From Escherichia coli (GTDB taxonomy: Bacteria; Pseudomonadota; Gammaproteobacteria; Enterobacterales; Enterobacteriaceae): DNA of 64,000 nucleotides. Positions 35,884-36,833 of the stretch are shown piece by piece. Made by a program: the position numbers and the translations under genes. The stretch is taken from the NCBI RefSeq assembly GCF_003334355.1, contig NZ_QOWP01000020.1. One strand, 5' to 3'. The notes under the pieces were generated by a model. That model saw only the letters and a list, made by a program, of their open reading frames with translations, made no database searches and was not told the DNA's origin. Each line of letters begins with the position of its first letter. Position 1 is the first letter of the stretch.

Positions 35884-36833
<950 letters not shown>

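Follow-up and report, generated by a model that had tools for sequence, protein, structure and literature searches.

The ycjG locus raises the question of whether an in-frame amber codon in an otherwise standard Escherichia coli gene for L-Ala-D/L-Glu epimerase is a real mutation, whether it abolishes the enzyme, and whether it reflects an ordinary accident or something that is selected or tolerated. The window referred to here is the whole stretch of 64,000 nucleotides that was analyzed. The explanation favored is that a recent, spontaneous transition turned Gln103 of ycjG into an amber codon in a rare natural phylogroup-A clone and thereby abolished the epimerase, which is considered very probable; the mutation itself, its reality, rarity and recency, and the positions of the catalytic residues relative to it can all be read directly from the data.

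Two minus-strand ORFs, 36515..36865 (116 aa) and 35858..36496 (212 aa), lie in one shared frame in the ORF listing, and the first-pass annotation had taken them as parts of a single gene of 321 codons; both the listing and the comparison to K-12 agree with this. The 116-aa ORF begins at an upstream TTG, while ycjG itself starts at the ATG at 36823, with AAGGAG ahead of it, and extends from there over 966 nt to 35858 (321 codons and the terminal TAG). Its sole internal stop is the TAG at codon 103 (...ALWDLAARR*QQSLADLIG...), where K-12 MG1655 reads CAG CAG CAA (Q103 Q104 Q105). The earlier placement of this stop was accurate in coordinates, frame, codon number and peptide, as was the G-to-A change it gave for the plus strand at 36517, which equals C307T on the coding strand and is the single difference from K-12 ycjG over the 966 nt. 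Restoring Gln103 gives a translation that does not differ from the PDB 1JPD chain over residues 1-321 and that matches the NCBIfam equivalog NF011708 (L-Ala-D/L-Glu epimerase; curated cut-off 343 bits) at 677.2 bits with coverage of 1-321 of 321, so the assignment of the gene to ycjG holds; the 102-aa product reaches 206.7 bits, under the cut-off. The reference YcjG is itself 321 aa long (PDB 1JPD) and not about 100 aa, as it would be if the short product were its natural form. The locus therefore combines a match to the full length of the family model with a reading frame that is interrupted by TAG at codon 103, and judging from its sequence it is a pseudogene of the NF011708 family rather than a functional member. 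The locus should accordingly be annotated as one ycjG pseudogene with an internal stop instead of two genes encoding 116 and 212 aa. A search of the literature for ycjG as a pseudogene found nothing relevant. The coordinates of the features discussed are collected in Table 1.

Table 1. Features of the ycjG locus, the murein-peptide genes and puuC in the window.
Feature	Position in window	Strand	Basis
ycjG (L-Ala-D/L-Glu epimerase), pseudogene, internal stop at codon 103	35858..36823	-	sequence, translation, identity to PDB 1JPD, NF011708
Premature amber TAG, codon 103 (CAG in K-12 and all close relatives)	36515..36517	-	comparison to K-12 and PSS-12
N-terminal capping-domain fragment, 102 codons still translated	36518..36823	-	match to PF02746 (MR_MLE_N)
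Downstream ORF, 212 codons, from TTG at codon 110 to the natural stop; barrel domain; probably untranslated	35858..36496	-	match to PF13378 (MR_MLE_C)
mpaA (murein tripeptide amidase), intact, convergent with ycjG	35155..35883	+	translation identical to K-12 MpaA
mppA (murein tripeptide binding protein), intact	30913..32526	-	identical to K-12 MppA
pgrR (regulator of murein-peptide degradation genes), intact	32863..33762	-	identical to K-12 PgrR
puuC (aldehyde dehydrogenase, putrescine utilization), two in-frame stops	61524-63011	-	

The surroundings of the gene are those of K-12 MG1655, in which ycjG is flanked by tpx in divergent orientation and by mpaA in convergent and overlapping orientation; the overlap of mpaA with the 3' end of ycjG amounts to 26 nt in both. 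As ycjG is the last gene of its transcript and convergent with mpaA, a polar effect on a downstream gene would not be expected. No Rfam match was found in window 33500-39500 (E-value up to 0.1), and a scan for promoters and terminators around ycjG gave nothing above background. The features of a programmed or maintained in-frame stop are not seen at this site, as the stop is conserved in none of the 5,426 complete genomes compared and is accompanied by no known cis-acting RNA element. Window 34891-35073 (+) contains only a 60-aa remnant of an NAD-dependent dehydratase-like gene (the ymjC region), as do K-12 and PSS-12; the public contigs L014, L016 and L019 have an intact NmrA-like gene of 212-216 aa in this region, and two of them (L016 and L019) have two adjacent ycjY-type hydrolase genes (310 and 306 aa) there as well.

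In considering what remains of the protein, the catalytic residues of 1JPD are the lysines K151 and K247, acting as acid/base, and the metal ligands D176, E202 and D225. Positions 151, 176, 202, 225 and 247 of the conceptual translation are K, D, E, D and K, and all of them lie 3' of codon 103. The 102-aa product, which is called as such in public assemblies, spans the Pfam MR_MLE_N (PF02746) region only and contains no catalytic residue. In-frame restart candidates are TTG110 and ATG133. The 20 nt ahead of each contain no Shine-Dalgarno motif (those of TTG110 read AGCAGCAATCGCTGGCTGAT), and re-initiation after the stop appears unlikely. Since all catalytic residues fall past the stop and the restart candidates have no ribosome-binding site, the amber allele is most likely a loss-of-function allele.

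The role of the enzyme allows the consequences to be predicted. Murein tripeptide has two fates: Mpl can re-use it directly, or MpaA cleaves it to mDAP and L-Ala-D-Glu, and the latter is epimerized by YcjG to L-Ala-L-Glu; expression of mpaA is diminished by PgrR (PMC9928106). In the proposed course of events, a spontaneous G:C-to-A:T transition would have changed the CAG of Gln103 to amber, and translation would halt at residue 102, leaving no more than a capping-domain fragment from the N-terminus; K151, K247, D176, E202 and D225 would be left unmade, and with no ribosome-binding site for re-initiation no L-Ala-D/L-Glu epimerase would be formed. Murein tripeptide, whether imported or recycled, would remain open to cleavage by MpaA to meso-DAP and L-Ala-D-Glu, and the L-Ala-D-Glu would no longer be converted to L-Ala-L-Glu for breakdown. 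The predicted defect is a block after MpaA that concerns the catabolic branch only: the isolate would be unable to convert L-Ala-D-Glu to L-Ala-L-Glu, while the release of DAP by MpaA and the re-use of tripeptide by Mpl should stay intact. As direct re-use through Mpl would be unaffected, the loss of ycjG should be non-lethal and at most mildly costly, and by pathway logic the gene is likely non-essential. A small leak through the stop may occur as well. In suppressor-free E. coli, the amino acids that near-cognate tRNAs insert at UAG include Gln (PMC4333366); read-through of UAG is low compared to UGA (PMC10570021). The residue lost at codon 103 is a Gln, so any misreading of the UAG by the normal Gln-tRNA would regenerate exactly the wild-type YcjG; this would be a rare event yielding traces of enzyme at most.

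The neighboring mpaA had been described as intact in the first-pass annotation, which is borne out by its translation, and the pathway had been described as specifically broken at the epimerase. The second statement holds among the murein-peptide genes of the window, as mppA, pgrR and mpaA all match K-12; it does not extend to the clone as a whole, in which private inactivating mutations are also found in puuC and puuA.

The origin of the DNA bears on how the stop is to be understood. Compared to MG1655, the window has 74 SNPs, 21 of them in 27 kb and 53 in another 12.6 kb, a divergence of 0.1-0.4%, and it is missing the IS5 that MG1655 carries between ynaI and ynaJ (~29280-29831). Among the 5,426 complete RefSeq E. 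coli genomes, the closest is that of PSS-12 from human faeces in Ecuador, with 21 SNPs in 47.8 kb. A draft at NCBI, GCA_014464935.1 (contig DABRFP010000015.1), is assigned to the same clone because the two stretches compared, of 5 kb and 13.8 kb and both outside ycjG, match the window at 100% identity. The clone-specific variants YcjW T230I/R312S and PuuB K150N each occur on only 7 public contigs, of which GCA_014464935.1 is one. From these comparisons the source is evidently a rare natural E. coli clone of phylogroup A. The 61-mer centered on the TAG has an exact match in none of the 5,426 complete genomes; the same 61-mer with one mismatch, being the CAG version, is present in 4,860 of them, and ycjG is found in 5,415, with a 100% match in none. 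The comparison with the ycjG alleles of close relatives that had been called for gave CAG in every case (K-12, PSS-12 and the 4,860 complete genomes), so the one in-frame stop of the gene stands against orthologues that are intact in its closest relatives. Set against K-12 and PSS-12, the TAG at codon 103 is seen in the clone alone; the stretch of ATCC 8739 that was compared stops short of ycjG. The Q103* allele is rare and recent.

Further differences between the window and its relatives were observed along the way. The ABC transporter ATPase gene ycjV is intact in the window (360 aa, 43851-44933, minus strand), and likewise in PSS-12 and ATCC 8739; K-12 MG1655 has one G fewer (SNP/indel at window 43979) and its ycjV is annotated as frameshifted. 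The genes abgR-abgA-abgB-abgT (21487-26516) lie where the SNP density relative to K-12 is several-fold above that of the rest of the window (the 53 SNPs in 12.6 kb); these SNPs are common to PSS-12, and the region looks like an old recombination tract relative to K-12. The stretches of PSS-12 that were compared contain nothing equivalent to window 4296-13037, and IS elements are found in the corresponding region of PSS-12; window 4296-13037 contains ORFs of 866 aa (9569-12169) and 288 aa (12105-12971), and from the sizes of these ORFs and its position beside intR and ttcA this stretch looks like a putative recE/recT part of the Rac prophage.

In further examining the clone, SNPs were called private when differences were polarized against K-12, PSS-12 and ATCC 8739. 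Nine such SNPs are present in 48 kb (window 16206-64000): 2 are intergenic, 1 is synonymous, 4 are non-synonymous (two in ycjW, one each in pspD and puuB) and 2 are nonsense, and 5 of the 9 are G:C-to-A:T changes. The two nonsense mutations are ycjG Q103* and puuC Q325*, both of them CAG-to-TAG. In puuC, the private TAG at codon 325 (62037-62039) is located 3' of an older TAA at codon 284 (62160-62162), which among the 5,426 complete genomes is shared with PSS-12 only. The clone also has a private 1-bp deletion in puuA, seen in the GCA_014464935.1 contig (L023, reverse-complemented position 14811) and about 1 kb past the right end of the window, which leaves products of 396 and 82 aa, and PSS-12 has a frameshifted puuD; by its sequence, the puu cluster is evidently decaying in this small clade. 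When neutral mutation was simulated with the spectrum observed, at least 1 nonsense change among 9 mutations had a probability of 0.35 and at least 2 a probability of 0.06. Given the private inactivating mutations in puuC and puuA, the loss of ycjG looks like part of ordinary recent decay, one of several mutations not yet purged, and not like a targeted loss. Together, ycjG and the decaying puu cluster show very recent clones carrying damaging mutations that have not been purged.

A selective explanation would be that inactivation of ycjG is favored in some niche, by keeping L-Ala-D-Glu or saving cost, with the amber as one of several convergent knock-outs. Other broken ycjG alleles, found by look-up of the 212-aa downstream product, do exist and lend this idea its appeal. 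The same C307T is present on a divergent ycjG allele (L016) that differs from K-12 at 14 positions, one of them (G305A) just two bases off, and owing to this divergence it is evidently an independent event. Q105* (C313T) is found on L015 and at 13 similar places, R101* (C301T) on L019, and W96* has arisen by two different changes, G287A (L018) and G288A (L014). The apparent concentration at codons 96-105 was considered as a nonsense hotspot and rejected, as calling of the 212-aa product requires a stop located after the TTG of codon 95 and before that of codon 110; the clustering is a product of ascertainment. Within this interval, 5 of the 6 possible transition-nonsense sites were observed, as would be predicted from mutational saturation in a collection this large (153 billion gene positions). 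The alleles are moreover rare, at 0 (Q103*) and 1 (Q105*) of the 5,426 complete genomes, the single case being NZ_CP025268.1, a K-12 MG1655 derivative with the labeled host Homo sapiens, and the gene is retained in nearly all of these genomes (5,415, as above). With other random-looking damaging mutations in the same clone, selection for the loss of ycjG is unlikely, and a recent, spontaneous and unselected amber mutation is the preferred account of the allele.

The identity of the mutated codon suggests another way in which the gene might remain functional: the clone could carry a supE-like tRNA-Gln with a CUA anticodon, which would insert Gln at codon 103 and yield substantial wild-type YcjG. 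CAG-to-TAG is exactly the change that a Gln-inserting suppressor repairs perfectly, and both private nonsense mutations are of this type. The neutral simulation put the probability of this at 0.003, but for a category that was defined post hoc, and one amber of the pair lies in a dead gene. The TAG in puuC, being 3' of the older TAA284, is selectively invisible either way and says nothing on tolerance. No tRNA gene is present in the 64-kb window, hence it holds no direct evidence of a suppressor. When the clone was extended by 7.5 kb by way of its specific PuuB variant, one more frameshift was found (in puuA) but no additional amber codon. A K-12 laboratory strain with supE was considered as the source of the DNA and rejected, as the 74 SNPs, the absent IS5 and the intact ycjV indicate a natural isolate lineage, 0.1-0.4% diverged from K-12. 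A literature search on natural amber suppressors yielded no usable source. A functional gene through suppression is considered very unlikely. A related and slightly less probable idea is an amber-tolerant background in general, through either a natural supE-like tRNA-Gln(CUA) or a weakened RF1, in which CAG-to-TAG changes would be partly silent and accumulate, and ycjG would be partly functional; if true, this would explain why both private nonsense mutations in 48 kb are CAG-to-TAG. Within the window, that coincidence is all that speaks for the idea. CAG-to-TAG alleles are the kind for which read-through or a Gln suppressor would bring back the exact protein. Loss of the epimerase through an ordinary amber mutation is preferred over both.

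The base call itself could be in error, with a true G at 36517 (CAG) and an intact ycjG, a concern that arises only from the prior that single-base assembly errors occur. An exact look-up of the 102-aa truncated product located C307T in contigs of the read-derived assemblies of ERR4578542 (shared by 5 samples), SRR3951466 and SRR25039421/22/23, and these TAG-bearing contigs match the window at 100% identity for 20.3, 11.8, 4.8, 2.6 and 2.6 kb. The base call thus recurs in independent data: at least 9 runs under three accession series, assembled independently, share the TAG base, although these public runs are perhaps not all independent isolates (the same strain may have been resequenced), so that they support the base call and not the circulation of the allele. 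The site is also outside any homopolymer (AGA TAG CAG). As the same TAG is present in contigs from several projects, a one-off sequencing error is practically excluded as judged from the assembled contigs, and an intact gene hidden by a miscall is extremely unlikely. The same look-up returned five Logan contigs (L006-L009, L011) that end at nt 306-308 of ycjG; a C/T polymorphism or an insertion hotspot was considered for these and rejected, as they are wild-type to the last base and, with so large a collection, a look-up restricted to products of 102 aa can be expected to turn up such coincidences. Least likely of all is a split enzyme in which the 102-aa capping fragment and a re-initiated 212-aa barrel fragment (TTG, codon 110) assemble as an active epimerase, since the closeness of the break to the MR_MLE_N / MR_MLE_C boundary and the position of the TTG only 18 nt past the stop are set against a TTG without a Shine-Dalgarno motif, the absence of residues 103-109, and an allele conserved in no relative, so that nothing suggests a selected arrangement.

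The allele can lastly be compared to known systems. With K-12 YcjG (PDB 1JPD; enolase superfamily, muconate-lactonizing-enzyme subgroup), it shares the genomic setting and 966 nt that are identical but for C307T; the difference is that codon 103 is TAG, so only the first 102 residues can be made, none of them catalytic. Amber hotspots at 5-methylcytosine, as formed by Dcm at CCWGG, are known from lacI, and the ycjG change resembles these in being a C-to-T transition from CAG to TAG; unlike them, its site is ACAGC and not CCAGG. A Dcm deamination hotspot was rejected for both private nonsense mutations, as the mutated C is outside CCWGG in each (AGA-CAG-CAG in ycjG, CAG-CAG-GCG in puuC). Old K-12 laboratory lines carry amber alleles of Gln codons, for example rpoS(Am), alongside supE (glnV44), and ycjG Q103* is similar to these as a CAG-to-TAG change restorable by a Gln suppressor; in contrast, the window is not K-12 and nothing indicates that the allele is maintained. 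There is also a likeness to the ordinary pseudogenes of E. coli isolates that NCBI PGAP flags, such as puuC (internal stop) in PSS-12 or the frameshifted ycjV in K-12, in which a single inactivating mutation is likewise present in a near-identical core gene of one clone or clade. The Q103* allele is absent from the 5,426 complete RefSeq genomes and present in public draft and read-derived assemblies, and in comparison to ordinary E. coli pseudogenes with internal stops nothing essential differs; the allele is genuine and recent, an ordinary loss of function in a well-characterized gene, and not new in kind.
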